Below are positions 41,539 through 52,462 of a stretch of 64,000 nucleotides of DNA, piece by piece; within the stretch, counting starts at the first letter, position 1, and the number at the start of each line of letters is the position of its first letter. Position numbers and translations under genes: made by a program. The notes under the pieces are model-generated. The model worked only from the letters and a program-made list of their open reading frames with translations. It made no database searches and had not been told where the DNA came from. The stretch is from Salinivirgaceae bacterium. GTDB taxonomy: Bacteria; Bacteroidota; Bacteroidia; Bacteroidales; SZUA-534. The DNA lies in the NCBI GenBank assembly GCA_024405635.1, contig JAKSOL010000010.1, positions 32,001 through 96,000 on the forward strand, in the 5' to 3' direction.

Positions 41539-43512
41539 ATGATTTCAGTTAGCAACCTAACGGTTGAATTTTCAGGCGTTCCACTCTTCAACAACATCAG
41601 TTTTTTAATCAACCCACGCGACCGCATAGGTTTAACTGGAAAAAACGGAGCAGGAAAATCAACCTTGCTAAAGGTGCTTTGCGGTGCCCAAAACTACGAC
41701 ACTGGCGCAGTTTCGGTACCTCGTGGTGTAACCATTGGTTACCTACCTCAACACATGTCGGTTGAAGATAAGCACACAGTTTTTGACGAAGCTTTGAGCG
41801 CTTTTGTTGAAGTAAAACAACTTGAAAAAGACATTGAAAAGCTAAACAACCAATTAGCCGAACGCACTGATTATGAGTCAGATGAATACATGAATCTGAT
41901 TCACGAACTAACTGAAAAAAACGACCGTTTTCATCTTTTGAGCGGACACAACATTGAAGGCGAAGTAGAGTCGACACTAATTGGTTTGGGCTTTGAGCGC
42001 ACCGACTTTACGCGCCAAACTGGCGAATTTAGCGGAGGCTGGCGCATGCGCATCGAACTTGCAAAAGTACTACTACGCCACCCCGATGTGTTACTACTCG
42101 ACGAGCCAACCAACCACCTCGACATTGAATCGGTTCAATGGTTTGAAGATATGCTTAAAACATACGAAGGCGCTGTTGTTGTTGTATCGCACGACAAAGC
42201 CTTTCTCGATAACCTTACAAACCGTACAATTGAAATATCGTTGGGCAAAATATACGACTTCAAGCTATCGTATTCCGACTACGTAAAACAACGCACCGAA
42301 ATGCTTGAGCAACAAAAAGCCGCATACGAGAACCAACAAAAAATGATTGACGACACCGAAAAATTCATTGAACGTTTTAGGTACAAAGCTACAAAAGCCG
42401 TGCAAGTACAGTCGCGCATTAAACAGCTTGAAAAAGTTGAGCGCATTGAACTTGACGAGTTCGACACTTCGGCAATTCACTTCCGTTTTCCACCTGCACC
42501 ACATTGCGGACAAATAGTGATTGAAACCAAAGGCATGAGCAAAAGTTTTGGCGATAATTTGATTCTTGAAAACATTGACTTTATGCTTGAACGCGGTCAA
42601 AAAGTGGCCTTTGTAGGACGAAATGGCGAAGGAAAAACAACCATGTCGAAAGTATTGCTTGGAATATACGAAAGCACAGGCATTGTTAAAATTGGCCACA
42701 ATGTTACAATAGGTTACTACGCTCAAAATCAGAGCGAAATGCTTGACGACAACAAAACCGTATTCCAAACTATTGACGACATTGCCAAAGGCGAAATACG
42801 AACTAAAATACGCGACATATTGGCATCGTTCCTATTTAGGGGCGAAGAAATTGACAAAAAAGTATCGGTACTATCAGGCGGCGAAAAAGCCCGCCTATCG
42901 ATGGCAAAATTGCTACTTGAGCCTGCCAACTTACTTGTACTCGACGAGCCTACAAACCACCTCGATATGCGCTCGAAAGACATTTTAAAACAAGCACTTA
43001 TAGCTTACGACGGAGCGCTTATTATAGTTTCGCACGACCGCGATTTTCTTGACGGCATGGTTGACGTGGTTTACGAGTTCCGCCACAAAAAAATGAAGCA
43101 ATATCTGGGCGGCATTGCCGATTTTCTGCATTACAAAAAAATGCAGAACCTGAACCAATTAAATGCAGTTCAGCAAAAAGGCAATCAAGCAAAAACTGAA
43201 AAACCAACCGCAGAGGCCAAACCGCAACCCGAAAATAAAACCAAAAGCAAATTAAGCTACGAGGAACAAAAAGAGGCCGAACGTAAACTGCGCACTGCTC
43301 GCAAAAAAGTTGAAGAAACCGAGCAACTGATTACCGAAACCGAGCAACAAATTGCCTCAATGGAAGAACTTTTTGCAAACGACCCACAAGCATCAGCCGA
43401 TGCTACCAAGTTTGAAGAATATAGCAACATGAAAAAGAAACTTGCCGATGCTATAAACCAATGGGAAAATTTTAGCGAACAACTTGACAAACTTGAACGC
43501 GAATTGAAGTAA
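41539..43512 (+). CDS. ABC-F family ribosome-associated ATPase (YheS/YdiF-like)
   Basis: Two NBDs (GKNGAGKST/FSGGW/LLDEPTNHLD and GRNGEGKTT/LSGGE), coiled-coil tail, no TM segments; TACCTTTG box at 41507-41514. Confidence 0.93.
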   Translation: MISVSNLTVEFSGVPLFNNISFLINPRDRIGLTGKNGAGKSTLLKVLCGAQNYDTGAVSVPRGVTIGYLPQHMSVEDKHTVFDEALSAFVEVKQLEKDIEKLNNQLAERTDYESDEYMNLIHELTEKNDRFHLLSGHNIEGEVESTLIGLGFERTDFTRQTGEFSGGWRMRIELAKVLLRHPDVLLLDEPTNHLDIESVQWFEDMLKTYEGAVVVVSHDKAFLDNLTNRTIEISLGKIYDFKLSYSDYVKQRTEMLEQQKAAYENQQKMIDDTEKFIERFRYKATKAVQVQSRIKQLEKVERIELDEFDTSAIHFRFPPAPHCGQIVIETKGMSKSFGDNLILENIDFMLERGQKVAFVGRNGEGKTTMSKVLLGIYESTGIVKIGHNVTIGYYAQNQSEMLDDNKTVFQTIDDIAKGEIRTKIRDILASFLFRGEEIDKKVSVLSGGEKARLSMAKLLLEPANLLVLDEPTNHLDMRSKDILKQALIAYDGALIIVSHDRDFLDGMVDVVYEFRHKKMKQYLGGIADFLHYKKMQNLNQLNAVQQKGNQAKTEKPTAEAKPQPENKTKSKLSYEEQKEAERKLRTARKKVEETEQLITETEQQIASMEELFANDPQASADATKFEEYSNMKKKLADAINQWENFSEQLDKLERELK

Positions 43513-43536
43513 ACAATATCTGCAATTAAGCTTACT

Positions 43537-43576
43537 ATAGCCAACCAATTGTAAAATTTGGTTGGCTATTTTTTTT
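43537..43576 (+). terminator. intrinsic terminator
   Basis: ATAGCCAACCAA / TTGGTTGGCTAT 12-bp stem followed by a T run. Confidence 0.85.
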
Positions 43577-43822
43577 GATTGTTAAACAACTAAAAAAACG
43601 CTTATTCTATTTTTATAGTTTTGATTAATAATTTTAATCATGCGACTAAATTCACAAGACAATCAAACATAATAATCGTCTATAGGACAATCAACTACGC
43701 AATAGTCAGCCACAAACATCAATTTCAAATTGTCATTATTTATTAGTATATTTAATGATAAATATTATTAAATTATAACTAATAATACATAAATATTAAA
43801 TGATATCTATTTACAATGAATG

Positions 43823-43830
43823 TATCTTTG
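43823..43830 (+). promoter_or_regulatory. -7 promoter element (TATCTTTG) with no adjacent CDS
   Basis: Exact TAnnTTTG preceded by a very AT-rich tract, about 270 nt before the next CDS, which has its own box. Confidence 0.55.
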
Positions 43831-43835
43831 GCATA

Positions 43836-43998
43836 AAGGTTATAGTTCTTTGAAAGGTTTGTTGCGAGGCTTAGAAAAATGATGCTTTTTGGGGCTGACT
43901 ATAACTTTCTTTTAGGGCTACAGTAATTTTTTTCATGGGTTAATTAATTTGGTTGAATACCATTAAGCACCTCTTCGCAACAATCTTTCATTTTTTCA
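43836..43998 (+). ncRNA. candidate structured small RNA or leader RNA
   Basis: Complementary segments 43851-43874/43963-43990 and 43836-43847/43897-43908, a promoter box directly upstream, and a U-rich 3' end. Confidence 0.5.
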
Positions 43999-44062
43999 TA
44001 TTTTTTTCAAAAAATCTCCCCTAACTATTAATACACAAAGTGTTTAATAGCTTGCATTGAGT

Positions 44063-44070
44063 TATCTTTG
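44063..44070 (+). promoter_or_regulatory. -7 promoter element (TATCTTTG) for the PKD adhesin operon
   Basis: Exact TAnnTTTG 30 nt upstream of ATG 44100. Confidence 0.65.
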
Positions 44071-44099
44071 CAACAAAATTTTTTGTTAAAAGAAACACC

Positions 44100-47000
44100 A
44101 TGAATACATACAAAAAACTCATAGCGGTTTTTACCATAATATTGTCAACATTAAGTGCCAATTGCCAAACCGACGTTGAGTTTTGGTTTGCTGTGCCAGA
44201 ACTAACATGGCGCCACGTTGCTGACCAAAAAACCTATCTGCATATTGCATCACTTGACGCTCCCGCCGATGTTGTTGTAGAAATGCCCCGAAACGCATAC
44301 GATGCAGTAAGCAACCCTAAAGGGTTTAACCCTATTTTGGTTACACTACCCGCAAACGGATATAACCTCATCGACCTCACTAGTATTATCACAGCCTCGC
44401 AAGACGACAATATTTTGGAGGTTGGTTTGGACAAAAACGCAGGCACCGTTGAAAACAATGGTTTGCACATTAAATCAACAGCTTTGATAACTGCATACCT
44501 TGAACGTGCCGATAACGACAACACCGACCTTTGGGCTCTTAAAGGTCGAAATGCTATTGGAAAAAACTTTATTGTTCCATCGCAAAACACATTCTACAAC
44601 AAAGCATTCGGAACTCCTGCAGCTTGGAATAGTATTGACGTTGTAGCAGTTGAAGATGCTACTGTAACATTCACTGTTCCAAAAGGCTCCGCTGTAAAGG
44701 TAAATGGTACAGTAAAAAACTTTACTTCTGCACCGGGCACAGTTTCGCAAAAACTAAAAGCTGGGCAAGCATTCTCGCTCCGTAGTGCCGCCGTTGGTAC
44801 AACATATTCTGGTTTTGAATGCGACCGTCACTTGGGTGGAACAATTATAAAATCGACTGGAAACATTGTTGTTCAATGGAAAGACGACTCAATGAAATCG
44901 GACTACACTGGTAGTTACGACGTTGCAGGCGACCAAATTGTACCTACTGATTTAGCAGGTTTTGAGTACGTTGTGATGCGTGGTCAACTTGGCAACGGAA
45001 ACAAGAATAGCGAATATGTTTACATAATGGCAACTGAGCCAAACACCACCGTAACATTTACTACCGAAGACGGTTCGCACACAGTACACAACCATCAAGC
45101 TGATATAATAAAAACTAGTGATAGTGATCGTGGTGTTAGTTACAAAGTTAATTACATGAAAGCCAACAGCAAAACCATTGATTATACTGAGGATGCACCA
45201 ATGGTATTGTCAAAAGTTGGCGAAATAAAGTATGTACGACTTAACGAGCTCTCTTTAAAATCAGAATCAGCATTTAGTGGCGATGCCGCAAACCTAAAAA
45301 ACTATGACGCCTTGCACATTAAGGCCGACAAAAAAATAATCGTTTTCCACATTTCAGGATTTGGTAGCGAAATGGGAGGCGCCATTTTACCAACCATTGA
45401 CGGCTGCACAGGTTCAAGCGAGGTTTCGTTTATGCGATCGAGCGTTCATGGTTTTTACCTTAACATAATGTGTAAAGGTCCTTTTATCGACTACTTTACC
45501 ATTGAAATTGAAGGCCGAGAATACCCAATACCTGGCAGTTGGTTTAAAAAGATTGAAGGCAGTGGCACAAACGAATCTAGCACTTGGTACTACCTAAACA
45601 AAAGTTATAACGAGTTTGGTAAAGCTCAAGGTGGTATTCCGGCCATTCAGGTTGGAAAAACTGTGAAGGTAAAAAACAAAGTAGGTTTGTTTCATTTGGG
45701 CATTATTAATGGTAATGCATCTGGAGGTTGCCGCTATGGTTATTTTTCCGACTTCTCCGACAATCAAAGCCGCGCCAACATTGCTAACTCTGGTTCCGAC
45801 TATCACGACTTTTGCGAAGGCGACACCATAACACTTCAAGCGAGCGGTGGTGTTGAATACAAATGGAAATACATTGAATCGGGAAGCAGCATATTTATCG
45901 ACCCCGACACAGAAAGTACCCCTCGTGTTAAACCAACACCAGGATTTAACCACTACGAAGTAACAATTAGACGCGCATGTTATACTGGCAACCAAAATCA
46001 AGATACCACAGTTGATGTTTACGCATTTGGTATTCCTCAAATCGTTGCCGATTTCGACATTAGCCCATCAACTGTTTGCAGCCCTAGAACTGTAACCTTT
46101 ACCAACAACACCACGGGCGCAAATACCTTTTATTGGACTATTGACGGACAACCAATAAGCGAGGAAAGCGAGATTGTACTCTATCCTTTTATAAATCAAG
46201 GAGGAACAGCTGCCGAATACCACATAGTGTCGCTAAAAGCATCGTTAGGTAACGGCTGCCCAAACTCAAAATCGAAAACAGTAACCGTTTGTCCATCATC
46301 TGAGGCCAAAGTTACAGCCGATGTTGCCATTGGTTGTCAACCTCTAACTGTAACATTTACTGACGAATCAACCGGTAACATAAGCCGAACCATTTGGAAT
46401 TTTGGCGATGGAACTGGCGACAAAGATTACGCACCAGGAACAATAGCAAAACACACTTACGTAAACCCAAGCGAAACCGATACAATATACTATGCAAAGG
46501 TTGTTACAACCAATACATTTAATTGTAGCGACACTGCCATTGTGCCAATTACCGTACACGGAATGGTTAAAGCACAATTCACTATTGACAAAGCTTCGGG
46601 TTGTGCACCTTTTGATGTCAACTTTAAGAACTATAGTATTGGCTACGGTCCAAAAACAGTTTACACATGGAACATTGGAGGCGACTATACAGGCACTCCA
46701 TCATCGACAAAAAATGCAGAATTTACACTTACTTACAACAATGAGACACAAGTGTTAAAGCAGTATAAAGACATAACACTTACTGCTACACTTACCGCAA
46801 ACAACGGAGATGTGTGTATAAGCACCAGCCAACGCGACACTATCACCGTTTATCCACATTTTACTATCGATTACGAAGTTTCGCCTATTTCGGGTTGCAA
46901 CCCACTTGAAGCCACTTTTACCAACCAATCAAACATTCAAGATTCAAAAACACAATTCAAGTGGTATTTTGGCGATGGATCTTCGGCAAACAACACTGGC

Positions 47001-50000
47001 ACTTTTTCTCATACTTATGCTCATGCTGAGCCAACTCAACAACATTTTCAAACTGCCCTTGCTGGCGAAAGTCAATATGGTTGCCGCGACTCGGTTGCAA
47101 AAGACATTATTACCGTTGAAGCTTACCTAGCACCACATTTCACTATCGACAATAGCGAAGGATGCTCACCTGTAACCATCAATTTAACAAACAACACTCC
47201 GGCTCATGCAAAATCCGACAATAGCACTTGGACTTTCACCAACACATCTGGAGCGAACTACCCTTACACATTGGTTTCTGGTTCGTTGAGCAACACTGCA
47301 AAATTGCGTTTCGAGAATAAAACAGGAACCATTCAAGTAATTACAATACGACTAACAGAATCAATTGACGGAACTCGTTGCTCTGAATCATATGAACAAA
47401 AAATAACCATCTACCCCGAAGTTTCGGCAAGTTTTGTAGCAAGCCAACCAACCGTTTGCGATAGCACTCAAATTGTTTTCACAAACAATTCAATTTTTAC
47501 AGGAACCACCTTAAAACCAAGCAAATACTCATGGATTTTTGGTAATGGTGCCACAAAAGATATGACTTCAGCTAGTGCCGTTTCACAACTATACCGCAAC
47601 ACAAGTGGAAGCACAGGAACTACCGCTCAAAACTACACAGTAACACTTATTGCTTCAGCAAATGGTTGTGCCGACACAGCCACCACACAAGTTGCAGTTT
47701 ATCCACCAGTAAAGGCTTCGTTTGTTGCCGAAGATGGCAAATACAATGTTTGTGCCCCTGCAACTATCAAACTAAAAAACACCTCAACAGGCGCAAACCA
47801 ATACTTGTGGGAATATAACGACGGAACACCAAGTAACTCAACATACAACTTAGCAAACGTAAACTACCCAGTACCAAGCACAACTACCCCAAACACTGTT
47901 GATGTTAAAATTGTTACAATGACAGCATCAAACGGAAGTTGTACAAGCACAGCAAAACGAACATTCAATGTTTCGCCTGAAATAAAACCATCGTTAACTG
48001 TTTCAAAATCGGCAGGTTGCGGTCCTCTTGATGTTACACTAAGCAGCGCTGGAACAACAGGCAACTCGTTGAGTTACGCATGGAACTTTGGCGACAACTC
48101 ACCTATTCTTAACCAAACCACCGAAAGCGTAAATCACACATTTGGCAACGATAGCGGCAATGACAAAACATACACTGCCAAACTTACCGTAACCAACAAT
48201 TTAGGCTGCAAAGCAACAGTACAAGCCAATGTTACTGTCTATCCAGAAATTGATGCACAATTCAGCATCATAAAAACAACCGAATGCTCGCCAATGGATG
48301 TTGATTTGGTTAACAATTCGCAAAACGGAAACAAATACATTTGGACATTTGGTGACGGACAAACCGAAACAAGCACCAGTGCTAGAGGAACTAAACATCA
48401 ATACAAAAACACTAGCCCAAGTGGCAACGACATTTCAACCTACACAATTAAACTTATAACCATTGACGCCAACCACACTGCTTGCCGCGATAGTATTAAG
48501 CACGATATAACAGTCTATCCCGAAGTTATTGCAGCATTTGATGCAACAAATACCGAAGGTTGCTCGCCTCTAACCTCATCGTTTACAAACAAATCGAAAG
48601 GTTATGGCTTGTCTTATGTATGGCAATACGACTACGACAACACTTCGTCAACCACAACCGATGCAACTCACAACCACACGTTTGATAACCGCGAGGCAAC
48701 TACCCGTACTTACAACGTTAAACTTATTGCTACCGATTTTAATAAATGTACTAGCACTGCAACAAAAACAGTAAAAGCCTACCCTCACGTTATTGCAGGC
48801 TTTGGGTACGTTAAAGAAGGAGTTTGTACTCCATACGAAGTATCGTTTAACCAACCAAACAACGCCATTAACGGCACCAAGTTCAGTTGGGATTTTGGCG
48901 ATGGTAGCAAAGAAGACAAATCAACCAAAGCAACATTTAAACACACATACGACAACACTACCGCAAACACGGTAAACACATACAACATTAAATTGCTAAC
49001 AACCGACACCAATACTGGTTGTAAAGACTCAACAACTCAAACAATTGAAGTATATCCTCGCTTAATTCCAGCATTTGAGGCCGATGTTACTGAAGGTTGT
49101 AACCCTGTTAGTGTAAGTTTTACCAACAAAACAACAGGTTTGGCAACTTACGCTTGGACATTTGGTGATGGCCAATCGTCAACACTAACAAACCCAGCGC
49201 ACACATTTACAAACTACAATACAACCGACGAAACATACACAACAACATTAACCACCACACAAAGTGCAACTGGTTGCCAAAAAACAACAAGTAAAGACAT
49301 TACAGCATACTCTTTTGTTCTTGCCAAATTTGGAATTAACGGAGCCGACCTTGAACAAGTAGGAAGCCAAGCAGGAGAACTGATGGGTGGTTGTACTCCA
49401 TTTAAAGTTGTTATAACCGACTCGTCGCGCATAAACGCAAACACAGGCTCTTGGAGTTGGAACTTTGGCGATGGCACAACGTCAAACAACCGCCAACCTT
49501 CAATTCTAACATACACAAACAACGATTCGGTAGCCCCACTTGAAAACAAGCGCTACGACATAAGTTTACGAGTAACCAACAACCACGGTTGCTATCACGA
49601 CACAGTTCAATCGCTTACTGTTTATCCGCGCTCTGTTCCAAACTTTACTGGCGATTTTGAAGGTTGCATGCCACACACTGTAACATTTGAAGACAAATCG
49701 GTAATTGACGATGGCACAAAATACTTTTGGTCATTTGGCGATGGTTCAACAGCTGTAACTGCTCCACCATTCAGCAAAACATACAACAACTACAGCAACA
49801 CCAACGACCAAGTGTTTACCATAAACCTTAAAACAACCACTCAGTACAACTGTACCGATGAAATTTCAAAAACAGTTACCGTACACCCAAAACCACAAGC
49901 AAGTTTCAGTCCACTAATCGACCGCGCTTGTCCACCCTTCAATGCCGAATTCAAAAACAATTCAATTGGAACAAACCTTACATACCATTGGGATTTTGAC

Positions 50001-51485
50001 AACGGCGAAACCATTGACACCAGAAGCCGAAGCAACCAACACTCAGAATATAGCAACGACACCAACGAACCTATTACTAAGTACGTTGAACTAATTGCCG
50101 AAAGCCCATTTGGCTGTCTCGACACAATGGTCAATCCTATGATAACATTCCCAAATGTGATTGTAGATTTTGAGGTTGACTCTATTGGTTGTAGTCCGCT
50201 AAACATTCAGGTTACAAACAAATCAACACAAACAGCAACAATCCACCACTGGGAGTTTGGCGATGGCAGCACATCGGTTGCAGCCGAGCCAGCATACACA
50301 TATTACAACACATCAAACAACGACGTTCAATACACAATAACATACATCGGCACCTCAAAATACCAATGTGTCGATACTGTTAAACACAACGTTATTGTTT
50401 ACATTAACCCAACAGTCGATTTTGTTGCCGATGCACCATCTCAACGATATCCAGACGATACCGTAATCTTCCAAAACTACACCCAAGACGGTCCTTGGAC
50501 ATATAAGTGGGATTTTGGAGACGGAAACACATCAACAACAGGCGAACGCGAATTCCTTTATAAATACGGCCGCTGGGCTCCAAACGATAGCAATAACATT
50601 TTCCACGTTACCTTAACCGTTGGAAGCGAGCATTGCAGCAATACCATTAGCCACGATGTTACAGTTTTGCCGCCTTATCCAAACATTGTTATCAGCAACG
50701 TAAAGCCAGCAGGATGCGTTCCTTTAACAGTCGATTTCCGCGTTGAAGAAGAATACACCACCTCATATTTGTGGGAATTTGAAGATGGAACCACATCAAC
50801 CGAAATGCAACCAACACACGAATTTACAGAACCTGGCTTATACAATGTTAAACTTACAGCTTTTGGCGATGGCGGATCTCATTACGACTACGAGATAATT
50901 ACCGTTTACGAACTACCAGAACCAAAATTCACAGCAGCGCCAACATTTGTAATGCTTCCAGACCAACCAGTGCAGTTCTTTAACCAAACACTTAACGGCA
51001 ACACATACATTTGGGACTTTGGCGATGGCACATATTCAACCGAGCAAAATCCAACACACCAATACAAAGAAGAAGGTATGTATGACGTTAAACTTATAGC
51101 ATTCTCAAACCAAATGTGTACCGATTCAATTATAGAAGAACAACACATTGAAGTAAGCGGCGAAGGTTACATACGCTACCCTAACGCATTCATTCCTTCT
51201 AGTTCAAGTCCAACCAATGGTTCGTATCCCGAGCCTGATGATATAAACAACGTATTCCACCCAATTTCGTTTGGCGTTAAAGAATACGAACTTTGGGTTT
51301 ACAACCGTTGGGGCGAAGAACTATTCCACTCAACCGACATTACAATTGGTTGGAATGGTCGTTACTCAAATTCTGGCAAAGAGTTAGGTCAAGATGTTTA
51401 TTTCTGGAAAGCAAAAGGTACATTCCAAAACAATACTCCTTTCAAAATTGCTGGTGATGTTACTCTAATTCGCAAAAAAGAATAA
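44100..51485 (+). CDS. giant T9SS-secreted adhesin-like protein: IgGFc-binding-type N-domain, about 19 PKD/Ig repeats, type B CTD
   Basis: Signal peptide; EFWFAVP N-domain; repeated GCxPLxVxF...WxFGDG units; C-terminal PNAFIP...N..F.P...YNRWGE...GWNG...DVYFW...GDVTLIR. Confidence 0.92.
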   Translation: MNTYKKLIAVFTIILSTLSANCQTDVEFWFAVPELTWRHVADQKTYLHIASLDAPADVVVEMPRNAYDAVSNPKGFNPILVTLPANGYNLIDLTSIITASQDDNILEVGLDKNAGTVENNGLHIKSTALITAYLERADNDNTDLWALKGRNAIGKNFIVPSQNTFYNKAFGTPAAWNSIDVVAVEDATVTFTVPKGSAVKVNGTVKNFTSAPGTVSQKLKAGQAFSLRSAAVGTTYSGFECDRHLGGTIIKSTGNIVVQWKDDSMKSDYTGSYDVAGDQIVPTDLAGFEYVVMRGQLGNGNKNSEYVYIMATEPNTTVTFTTEDGSHTVHNHQADIIKTSDSDRGVSYKVNYMKANSKTIDYTEDAPMVLSKVGEIKYVRLNELSLKSESAFSGDAANLKNYDALHIKADKKIIVFHISGFGSEMGGAILPTIDGCTGSSEVSFMRSSVHGFYLNIMCKGPFIDYFTIEIEGREYPIPGSWFKKIEGSGTNESSTWYYLNKSYNEFGKAQGGIPAIQVGKTVKVKNKVGLFHLGIINGNASGGCRYGYFSDFSDNQSRANIANSGSDYHDFCEGDTITLQASGGVEYKWKYIESGSSIFIDPDTESTPRVKPTPGFNHYEVTIRRACYTGNQNQDTTVDVYAFGIPQIVADFDISPSTVCSPRTVTFTNNTTGANTFYWTIDGQPISEESEIVLYPFINQGGTAAEYHIVSLKASLGNGCPNSKSKTVTVCPSSEAKVTADVAIGCQPLTVTFTDESTGNISRTIWNFGDGTGDKDYAPGTIAKHTYVNPSETDTIYYAKVVTTNTFNCSDTAIVPITVHGMVKAQFTIDKASGCAPFDVNFKNYSIGYGPKTVYTWNIGGDYTGTPSSTKNAEFTLTYNNETQVLKQYKDITLTATLTANNGDVCISTSQRDTITVYPHFTIDYEVSPISGCNPLEATFTNQSNIQDSKTQFKWYFGDGSSANNTGTFSHTYAHAEPTQQHFQTALAGESQYGCRDSVAKDIITVEAYLAPHFTIDNSEGCSPVTINLTNNTPAHAKSDNSTWTFTNTSGANYPYTLVSGSLSNTAKLRFENKTGTIQVITIRLTESIDGTRCSESYEQKITIYPEVSASFVASQPTVCDSTQIVFTNNSIFTGTTLKPSKYSWIFGNGATKDMTSASAVSQLYRNTSGSTGTTAQNYTVTLIASANGCADTATTQVAVYPPVKASFVAEDGKYNVCAPATIKLKNTSTGANQYLWEYNDGTPSNSTYNLANVNYPVPSTTTPNTVDVKIVTMTASNGSCTSTAKRTFNVSPEIKPSLTVSKSAGCGPLDVTLSSAGTTGNSLSYAWNFGDNSPILNQTTESVNHTFGNDSGNDKTYTAKLTVTNNLGCKATVQANVTVYPEIDAQFSIIKTTECSPMDVDLVNNSQNGNKYIWTFGDGQTETSTSARGTKHQYKNTSPSGNDISTYTIKLITIDANHTACRDSIKHDITVYPEVIAAFDATNTEGCSPLTSSFTNKSKGYGLSYVWQYDYDNTSSTTTDATHNHTFDNREATTRTYNVKLIATDFNKCTSTATKTVKAYPHVIAGFGYVKEGVCTPYEVSFNQPNNAINGTKFSWDFGDGSKEDKSTKATFKHTYDNTTANTVNTYNIKLLTTDTNTGCKDSTTQTIEVYPRLIPAFEADVTEGCNPVSVSFTNKTTGLATYAWTFGDGQSSTLTNPAHTFTNYNTTDETYTTTLTTTQSATGCQKTTSKDITAYSFVLAKFGINGADLEQVGSQAGELMGGCTPFKVVITDSSRINANTGSWSWNFGDGTTSNNRQPSILTYTNNDSVAPLENKRYDISLRVTNNHGCYHDTVQSLTVYPRSVPNFTGDFEGCMPHTVTFEDKSVIDDGTKYFWSFGDGSTAVTAPPFSKTYNNYSNTNDQVFTINLKTTTQYNCTDEISKTVTVHPKPQASFSPLIDRACPPFNAEFKNNSIGTNLTYHWDFDNGETIDTRSRSNQHSEYSNDTNEPITKYVELIAESPFGCLDTMVNPMITFPNVIVDFEVDSIGCSPLNIQVTNKSTQTATIHHWEFGDGSTSVAAEPAYTYYNTSNNDVQYTITYIGTSKYQCVDTVKHNVIVYINPTVDFVADAPSQRYPDDTVIFQNYTQDGPWTYKWDFGDGNTSTTGEREFLYKYGRWAPNDSNNIFHVTLTVGSEHCSNTISHDVTVLPPYPNIVISNVKPAGCVPLTVDFRVEEEYTTSYLWEFEDGTTSTEMQPTHEFTEPGLYNVKLTAFGDGGSHYDYEIITVYELPEPKFTAAPTFVMLPDQPVQFFNQTLNGNTYIWDFGDGTYSTEQNPTHQYKEEGMYDVKLIAFSNQMCTDSIIEEQHIEVSGEGYIRYPNAFIPSSSSPTNGSYPEPDDINNVFHPISFGVKEYELWVYNRWGEELFHSTDITIGWNGRYSNSGKELGQDVYFWKAKGTFQNNTPFKIAGDVTLIRKKE

Positions 51486-52462
51486 TGAAGAAAATACTCC
51501 ACATATTATCAGTTGCATTGCTACTGCCAATCTTTGCTAAAGCACAAGATCCGCAGTTTACGCAGTTTTACTCAAACCCATTATATCAAGCACCATCATT
51601 TGCAGGCGCCATTTCGGGTTATCGAGCATCACTTAACTACCGCGACCAATGGCCTAAAATGCCAGGAAAACTAAACACAATGAACGTGGCTATTGACGCA
51701 AATATTGACAAAATAAATAGTGGACTTGGTCTTATTGCATTGCGCGACGTTGCTGGATCAGCAAGTTATTCTAACCTTTCAGTGGGTTTGCTTTATGCCT
51801 ACAACATACGACTAAACCGACGTATTTATCTGCGTCCTGGCTTAGGATTCTACATGAATCAACGCAGCCTTGACTACGAGAAACTATTGTTTGCTAGCCA
51901 AATGTACGCCAACTCAACATCTCAACCAGTTTTGCCCGAAGACTTTTCAAACATTACTGCTTTTGATGGAAGTTGCTCGCTTTTGCTATTAGCCCGAAAC
52001 TATTGGGTTGGTTTAAGCGCCGACCACCTAATGCAACCTAATGTCTCAGTAACAGGTTACGACTACAAGATGCCTATCAAGTACACAGTTTTTGCAGGTT
52101 TAAAACTTCACAAACTTGAACGACTTATAAGTACAAAACGACAAACAGTAACACTTGCAGCAAACTTCCGTCACCAAGGCGTTACCAACCAAATGGACGT
52201 TGGTTTATATTGGTACTACTCGCCCATTGTTCTTGGTGTTTGGTACCGCGACCTTCCTCTAATAAAGGACTACAGCCGACGAGATGCTCTTGCTTTTCTT
52301 ATAGGCTACGAATACGAAAGCTTCAAAATTGGTTATAGTTACGACTTTACTTTGTCGCATCTAATCACCAACACAGGAGGCGCACATGAGGTTTCGCTAT
52401 CATACAAATTTGAAATTGAACGTAAACGCAAGTTCAAATCAATCCCATGCCCTGAATTCTAG
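51485..52462 (+). CDS. PorP/SprF-family T9SS outer-membrane protein
   Basis: AQDPQFTQFY..PL...P.FAG, NYRDQW and IGYSYDFTLS...GGAHEVSL motifs; TAATG stop/start overlap with the adhesin gene. Confidence 0.93.
   Translation: MKKILHILSVALLLPIFAKAQDPQFTQFYSNPLYQAPSFAGAISGYRASLNYRDQWPKMPGKLNTMNVAIDANIDKINSGLGLIALRDVAGSASYSNLSVGLLYAYNIRLNRRIYLRPGLGFYMNQRSLDYEKLLFASQMYANSTSQPVLPEDFSNITAFDGSCSLLLLARNYWVGLSADHLMQPNVSVTGYDYKMPIKYTVFAGLKLHKLERLISTKRQTVTLAANFRHQGVTNQMDVGLYWYYSPIVLGVWYRDLPLIKDYSRRDALAFLIGYEYESFKIGYSYDFTLSHLITNTGGAHEVSLSYKFEIERKRKFKSIPCPEF

Follow-up and report, generated by a model that had tools for sequence, protein, structure and literature searches.

To our knowledge, post-transcriptional control in the Bacteroidota is known almost only from Bacteroides thetaiotaomicron. 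The closest described systems in this species are the small RNAs (sRNAs) GibS and FopS. In the parts of the two reports that we draw on, long AU-rich single-stranded seeds that are common to paralogs pair across the start codons of targets, and both the start-codon pairing and translational repression were shown by experiment (PMC7366714, PMC11697453). The same parts describe the Bacteroidota as being without Hfq and name an RRM protein as the partner (PMC7366714, PMC11697453). The FopS family is reported there as deposited in Rfam (PMC11697453).

Here we describe a predicted sRNA gene of a Salinivirgaceae bacterium, found in a stretch of 64,000 nucleotides that was analysed as a whole and is called the window below. 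As far as those accounts of GibS and FopS go, the locus shares with them a TAnnTTTG-type promoter, a long, AU-rich, conserved seed that is predicted to be single-stranded, and the occurrence of several RNAs with one seed. The genome is also like that of their hosts in having an RRM gene (one RRM_1 gene was found) and no Hfq match. However, there are differences. No Rfam family reaches its threshold here, and the Rfam 15 scan gave no match that would link the RNA to FopS, a comparison limited to the models in that release. The seed of the main RNA is placed in an internal loop that is closed by a 17-bp helix and adjoins a pseudoknot, and not at a free 5′ end. In addition, its distribution is confined to a different family within the order.

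Two further kinds of RNA are close enough to be compared. CpxQ, SroC, OmrA/B and Qrr are known as 3′UTR-derived or seed-sharing sibling sRNAs. Like these, the core of the loop described here is found directly behind stop codons and directly ahead of intrinsic terminators (in the sibling type T2 and in the copy on contig C5 of genome G002), and the same core is also present in independent genes (the main RNA and the types T1 and T3), all known here from sequence alone. The RNA resembles 6S RNA in its similar size and in the long closing helix that joins its 5′ and 3′ parts, but it differs in having no model match, no rod with a central bubble and a one-family distribution.

The reading that we favor, at a probability of about 0.6, is that the plus strand carries a gene for a putatively transcribed non-coding small RNA, with a shared seed that would pair with mRNAs near start codons. 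Its action in trans, its target sites and the repression are presumed, and a 21-codon open reading frame (ORF) on the opposite strand would be an accidental by-product of the sequence of the RNA gene. The predicted RNA is a new sRNA family of a known kind, for which no description was found in Rfam 15.

The predicted small RNA gene and its fold

The small RNA gene is located in a spacer of 587 nt (43513-44099), which also holds the 21-codon ORF. The features of the spacer and its borders are as follows.

41539-43512, plus strand: ABC-F type ATPase gene, the upstream border of the spacer
43823-43830, plus strand: promoter −7 box TATCTTTG of the Bacteroidota TAnnTTTG type, read from the sequence
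43836-43996, plus strand: putative small RNA gene of ~160 nt, its ends placed from the promoter box and the U-tail; 137 bits with covariance model R1
43838-43845, plus strand: 5′ strand of helix A (GGUUAUAG), pairing with 43899-43906
43853-43869, plus strand: 5′ strand of helix B, predicted unpaired probability 0.05
43899-43906, plus strand: 3′ strand of helix A (CUAUAACU), crossing helix B
43924-43959, plus strand: proposed seed, an invariant loop (UAAUUUUUUUCAUGGGUUAAUUAAUUUGGUUGAAUA) that differs among 34 distinct sequences only in the length of the U-run
43930-43943, plus strand: loop core UUUUCAUGGGUUAA, common to the sibling RNAs T1, T2 and T3 of related genomes
43973-43989, plus strand: 3′ strand of helix B, the partner of 43853-43869
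43991-43996, plus strand: U-tail behind helix B, a terminator-like end
44100-51485, plus strand: gene for a 2461-aa protein with PKD repeats and a CHU_C type IX secretion signal, the downstream border of the spacer

The RNA has its own predicted promoter, of the sigma-ABfr type. Of the 33 distinct upstream flanks, 30 have an exact TAnnTTTG at a distance of 6-11 nt from AGGUUAUAG, where conservation begins, and the remaining three are one base off. At the 3′ end, helix B and the U-tail form a terminator-like structure, and the T-rich stretch behind helix B is also present in the aligned homologs. A simple terminator scan did not report this end because its loop limit is 8 nt and the loop here is far longer. 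Metatranscriptome contigs from three runs sharing words with the region (Logan) fall on the ABC-F gene and on 44768-45000 and none on 43508-44767, a contig-level result with no bearing on the absence of the RNA.

Conservation follows the boundaries of the gene. When 40 related genomes were searched, 43835-43997 matched at 71-84% identity across genera, and the rest of the spacer was without partners. By tally, all 24 genomes of the family had a match, counting one in G023 (a 65% complete genome) that is outside the RNA and one in G012 that covers just the first 29 nt of the RNA at a contig end. For the genomes of other families the result was one weak match in 16, in the T-rich tail. A 22-nt word of the loop, with at most one mismatch, is present in 31 of 33 Salinivirgaceae genomes. 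In a species-level genome collection, a 25-nt loop word was found in 33 stretches, of which 15 are titled Salinivirgaceae, 9 Bacteroidales, 6 Bacteroidetes, 1 Marinilabiliales, 1 Rickettsiales and 1 Rikenella microfusus. The RNA-bearing contigs titled Rickettsiales bacterium and Rikenella microfusus (L034, L047) are probably mis-binned or mislabelled. Over 149 genomes from the order's other families, model R1, built from 34 distinct sequences, gave no match; it was positive in both family genomes of that sample, in a search with stricter filters that scored only first-look candidates.

The original prediction had proposed to look for paralogous elements in the same genome. The small RNA is single-copy there, with one core match in G000 (the genome of the window), and elsewhere only T-rich tails match. 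Two copies of the main RNA stand in tandem, 450-600 nt apart, in four larger genomes (G002 C30:61221-61844; G005 C147:29006-29667; G011 C83:320-949; L052).

Rfam 15 gave no match at the gathering score in the whole 64-kb window. With E values up to 10, the sole match overlapping 43836-43996 was a minus-strand lncRNA model at E 9.2. There were also no Rfam matches in 11 loci carrying the main RNA or siblings, nine of them sibling-type loci (eight plus the variant L078). Judged by title, none of nine papers that mention Salinivirgaceae deals with RNA.

The predicted fold is supported by covariation in an alignment of the 34 distinct sequences, in which both helices were tested over 868 cells against 500 shuffles and controls with slid partners. 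Jointly, 95.3% of the cells are paired and eight pairs have changes on both sides. The slid controls reach 36-53% paired, and none of the 500 shuffles reaches any of the five measures. Helix B, with 17 pairs of which seven are changed on both sides, is paired in 93.5% of cells. Helix A, which has 8 bp in the window and 9 pairs in the alignment, is paired in 98.7%, with one pair altered on both sides and three pairs altered on one side by changes of G-U type. Because the 5′ strand of helix B is located between the two strands of helix A, the fold predicted from the covariation of both is a pseudoknot. G-U and U-G pairs are frequent (for example, columns 31-170 are UG in 11 rows and 36-165 GU in 7). 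On the opposite strand these would turn into A-C mismatches, which shows that the constraint acts on the plus strand.

Around the gene, several observations can be added. In 27 of 33 loci, two conserved genes (~580 aa and ~178 aa) form a pair that is transcribed away from the RNA, e.g., on the minus strand at L024:2277-4592. In the genome of the window this pair is on another contig (G000 C35:18930-21148). Neither protein has a Pfam or NCBIfam match; the ~580-aa protein has a signal-peptide-like start and a barrel-like C-end. A second TATCTTTG box is found 30 nt before the start of the 2461-aa gene, within a 25-nt direct repeat that it forms with the promoter region of the RNA (72% identity). 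The terminator hairpin of the ABC-F gene has a 9-nt loop (TTGTAAAAT, 43549-43557) that appears as its exact reverse complement in contigs of the DNA run X2. These five alternating substitutions are a hairpin-loop inversion polymorphism between strains.

The invariant loop and RNAs that share its core

The most constrained part of the RNA is its loop. About 36 nt of it are invariant and AU-rich, and around the T-run and CAT ~41 alignment columns are invariant in the 34 distinct sequences. The original prediction was that a UUUCAU seed would be conserved, and this holds for the whole loop if differences in U-run length are set aside. Nested thermodynamic ensembles, computed for the 34 sequences, leave the U-run and CAU unpaired with a predicted probability of ~0.6-0.8. 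The GGGUUAA of the loop is partly paired with UAACC in these nested folds, and UAACC otherwise forms helix A. Thus, the conserved seed shared with the sibling RNAs is predicted to be mostly single-stranded at the U-run and CAU and only partly so at GGGUUAA. In run X2, contig ends meet and overlap right next to the T-run of the loop (43921-43932 in the window), which may reflect variation of the run length within the population.

When the complement of the loop was searched with exact and degenerate patterns in 33 genomes of the family, and the extra sites were fetched and read, most of these sites were not gene starts. They carried UUUUCAUGGGUUAA, the core, in the same sense within other putative transcripts, which fall into three types.

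T1 (L061, L063, L065, L067, L091, L097, L100, L103, L105): RNA of ~95 nt that has a promoter of its own
T2 (L062, L064, L066, L068, L090, L095): core like a 3′UTR tail before a terminator
T3 (L099, L101, L102): mini-gene of promoter, core and terminator

In T1, all nine loci examined have TATATTTG before the conserved start, the core after ~25 nt and a GC-rich 3′ hairpin with three compensatory pairs; the same ATG opens a 3-codon antisense frame. In the six T2 loci the core is followed by a hairpin and a U-run. A sense ORF was detected in three of them, ending 5-8 nt before the T-run, and the one product scanned has a weak Por_Secre_tail match below the cut-off (E 1.7e-4). Variants of T2 are present in G005 (L078) and on contig C5 of G002, where an aldehyde ferredoxin oxidoreductase gene ends in a stop codon at which the core begins, with a terminator behind it. 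It had been considered whether the C5 copy follows an ortholog of the ABC-F gene of the window; this was ruled out since the proteins are unrelated. In two of the three T3 loci TAnnTTTG stands directly before the core and in the third ~35 nt upstream.

Further core copies were found neither in the genome of the window nor in 14 of the 16 genomes of the rumen-type genus; the other two of the 16 have a variant copy. This diverged loop copy reads UUUUCAUAGGUUAAUAAUUUGGUUGG in the RNA sense (L116, L117; G174 C75, G176 C88).

Because the core recurs in the same sense in RNAs of other designs, we read it as a shared seed. In four settings that are unrelated to one another, its orientation with respect to promoters and terminators is the same, and this is best read as a putative RNA-level module.

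Target search and a possible protein partner

We suggest the following mechanism. The RNA would start just past the TAnnTTTG box, fold into the crossing helices A and B and end in the U-tail. The 17-bp helix B would close the molecule, with helix A as an 8-bp helix at the 5′ end and the AU-rich invariant loop in between. Most likely, the seed, which is the complement of ..UUAACCCAUGAAAAAAA.., would pair with mRNAs at or near their start codons. Such pairing would block initiation, as for GibS and FopS in Bacteroides. We consider pairing of the loop near start codons the most likely function because of the GibS/FopS precedent and because the genome has the RRM_1 gene, at G000 C34:99135-99344, and no Hfq match.

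In the target search, RNAduplex with the 49-nt loop produced long, loop-rich duplexes that were no better than those of 10 shuffles, and a 21-nt seed was used instead and compared with 13 control seeds against 2661 crude start regions of the genome. The seed has 75 sites at or below −12 kcal/mol and 19 at or below −14 kcal/mol. The controls range over 14-86 and 1-20 sites, respectively, and two or three of them perform as well as the seed. The best-ranked start regions form a heterogeneous group: GH9, a TPR protein, a TonB receptor plug, a PAS sensor and an aldo-keto reductase, the last with a twin-arginine-type start. GH9 (−22.2 kcal/mol here) and the aldo-keto reductase (−25.6 kcal/mol) were rejected as conserved targets, since the values for their orthologs in other genomes fall to −5.6 to −16.4 kcal/mol. 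No conserved near-perfect target was found in 33 genomes of the family; the matches were sibling RNAs, chance intragenic sites and unrelated MKKI genes. A perfect 14-mer complement is present at one real start, in G016, which belongs to an ispF-like gene. For u1 and u2, the conserved neighbour genes, no conserved complementarity was found around the start.

The original prediction had offered as its first option that the plus-strand RNA displays an anti-start-codon seed able to repress many MKK-type mRNAs. One half of this is supported by our findings: the plus strand is the working strand, the RNA is structured and the loop is its most constrained part. The other half, repression of many MKK-type mRNAs, stays hypothetical: predicted pairing with start regions is within the range of the controls, and no conserved target was found.

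Complements of the seed core are rare words in G000, with ACCCATGA occurring 14 times and CCCATGAA 15 times against ~70 expected; their reversed controls occur 32 and 28 times. This rarity could be target avoidance or simple avoidance of CATG.

The strongest alternative is a genuine RNA that acts through a protein and not by pairing with mRNAs. Its invariant loop and 5′ end would then be binding sites for sequestering or scaffolding, possibly in a 6S-like or other RNP RNA, and the siblings would carry the same protein-binding motif. The ~36 invariant nucleotides of the loop and the invariant 5′ end exceed a usual seed and are more than varied targets need. The outcome of the target search, with no conserved mRNA target in the family genomes and no enrichment of start-region pairing over the control seeds, fits this as well, and no 6S RNA was detected in the genome with RF00013 or RF01685. 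However, the missing 6S RNA is uninformative, because RF00013 matches in 0 of 41 genomes of the order and RF01685 in no control genome. For the same reason, the lack of a match of the small RNA itself to RF00013 and RF01685 is a weak test, with RF00013 blank in 41 of 41 genomes. As to 6S RNA in particular, only one helix closes the consensus fold, and it is crossed by the second helix that has support, so that there is no rod with a central bubble. The motif is present once per RNA, and in T3 it is at the very 5′ end before the terminator, which is the usual layout of a pairing sRNA. In addition, the RNA is restricted to one family, unlike housekeeping RNAs. We regard a protein partner as doubtful, though with enough weight to be kept in mind beside start-codon pairing.

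Start-codon pairing could be extended to a seed module of the whole family, which we consider a long shot. The core sRNA would be present in nearly every Salinivirgaceae genome, and satellites with the same anti-start sequence would tune MKK-type signal-peptide proteins, with the pseudoknot of the core sRNA acting as a switch that gates the seed. If this were true, the satellites would be the mini-sRNAs, the 95-nt sRNA and the 3′UTR tails, all carrying the complement of UUAACCCAUGAAAAAAA. The tuned proteins would be cell-surface and type IX secretion proteins, often encoded beside these RNAs. CUAUAACC would pair either with the 5′ end, forming helix A and leaving the seed free, or with GGGUUAA, hiding the seed.

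Neighbouring genes and the minus-strand reading frame

The remaining alternatives concern the position of the RNA and the opposite strand, for which two more features are needed.

43871-43936, minus strand: ORF of 21 codons with an ATG start, reading MKKITVALKESYSQPQKASFF*; judged spurious since neither frame nor length is kept
51485-52462: PorP/SprF gene (PF11751, E 1.8e-57) with the protein start ATGAAGAAAATA

The RNA could be a cis-acting leader or an insulator for the giant surface-protein gene downstream (44100-51485). A same-strand gene for a giant PKD protein does follow the RNA, both in the window and at 5 of 33 loci. However, the RNA ends in a helix and a U-tail, and some of the copies in rumen MAGs have a second hairpin terminator after the RNA. 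The giant gene of the window has its own TATCTTTG box (44063-44070), and at other loci the gene that comes next either has the opposite orientation or is unrelated, e.g., Vut_1 or a BspA-type LRR protein. Given this separate promoter box and the varied downstream genes, a leader function is quite improbable.

The second option of the original prediction was that the minus-strand ORF encodes a real 21-aa peptide, with the plus-strand RNA as its cis-antisense regulator. Several of the observations behind it are correct. The ORF can be read from 43936 to 43871 and is present in the ORF listing: on the plus strand, seven T at 43927-43933 are followed by CAT at 43934-43936, which gives the minus-strand ATG, and tta at 43871-43873 gives its stop codon TAA. 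It is located within the loop closed by the long helix (43853-43869 / 43973-43989). The ATG is behind an A-rich upstream region and opens an MKKI start, and the porP/sprF gene at 51485, cited for comparison, has indeed an MKK-type start and the Pfam match listed above. As had also been noted, the minus strand is without a TAnnTTTG box upstream of the ORF; its complement, CAAANNTA, is not visible on the plus strand from 43937 to ~44050, which speaks against a gene for the peptide.

The peptide is not conserved. Across 21 homologous loci, the run of T that precedes CAT is 6 nt long in 1 locus, 7 nt in 8, 8 nt in 9, 9 nt in 2 and 10 nt in 1. Because of this variation the minus-strand frame shifts and the peptides differ in length, from 5 to 34 aa, and only 3 of the 21, including that of the window, start with MKKITVAL. 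The nine T1 loci carry frames of only three codons, and the G-U pairs of the helices mark the plus strand as the constrained one. We therefore reject a small protein gene here and give the micropeptide only a very slight chance. There are 96 ORFs of at least 20 aa overlapping the 6 kb around it, and the 21-codon ORF by itself is within chance; the conservation of the DNA is far beyond chance.

That the arms 43853-43869 and 43973-43989 are the inverted repeats of an inverton beside the surface-protein gene has a probability close to nil, since, though an inverted repeat flanks ~100 bp upstream of that gene, all 34 distinct homologs have the inner segment turned the same way with respect to the promoter, covariation of the arms passes through G-U intermediates, as is typical of RNA, the contigs of run X2 have the orientation of the window, and the two orientations side by side were found neither among these homologs nor in the X2 contigs.

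With the sRNA reading preferred, the 21-codon ORF is an example of how an A-rich start region and an MKK start can arise by accident opposite a U-rich RNA seed. Such accidental starts are a trap for small-ORF annotation in AT-rich Bacteroidota. The RNA, found by inspection of DNA only, has parts that can be tested, namely the promoter, the pseudoknot, the seed and the sibling RNAs. If the reading is right, these RNAs would form a second set of sRNAs with a common seed, unrelated to the first and belonging to a largely uncultured family of bacteria from animal guts and sediments.
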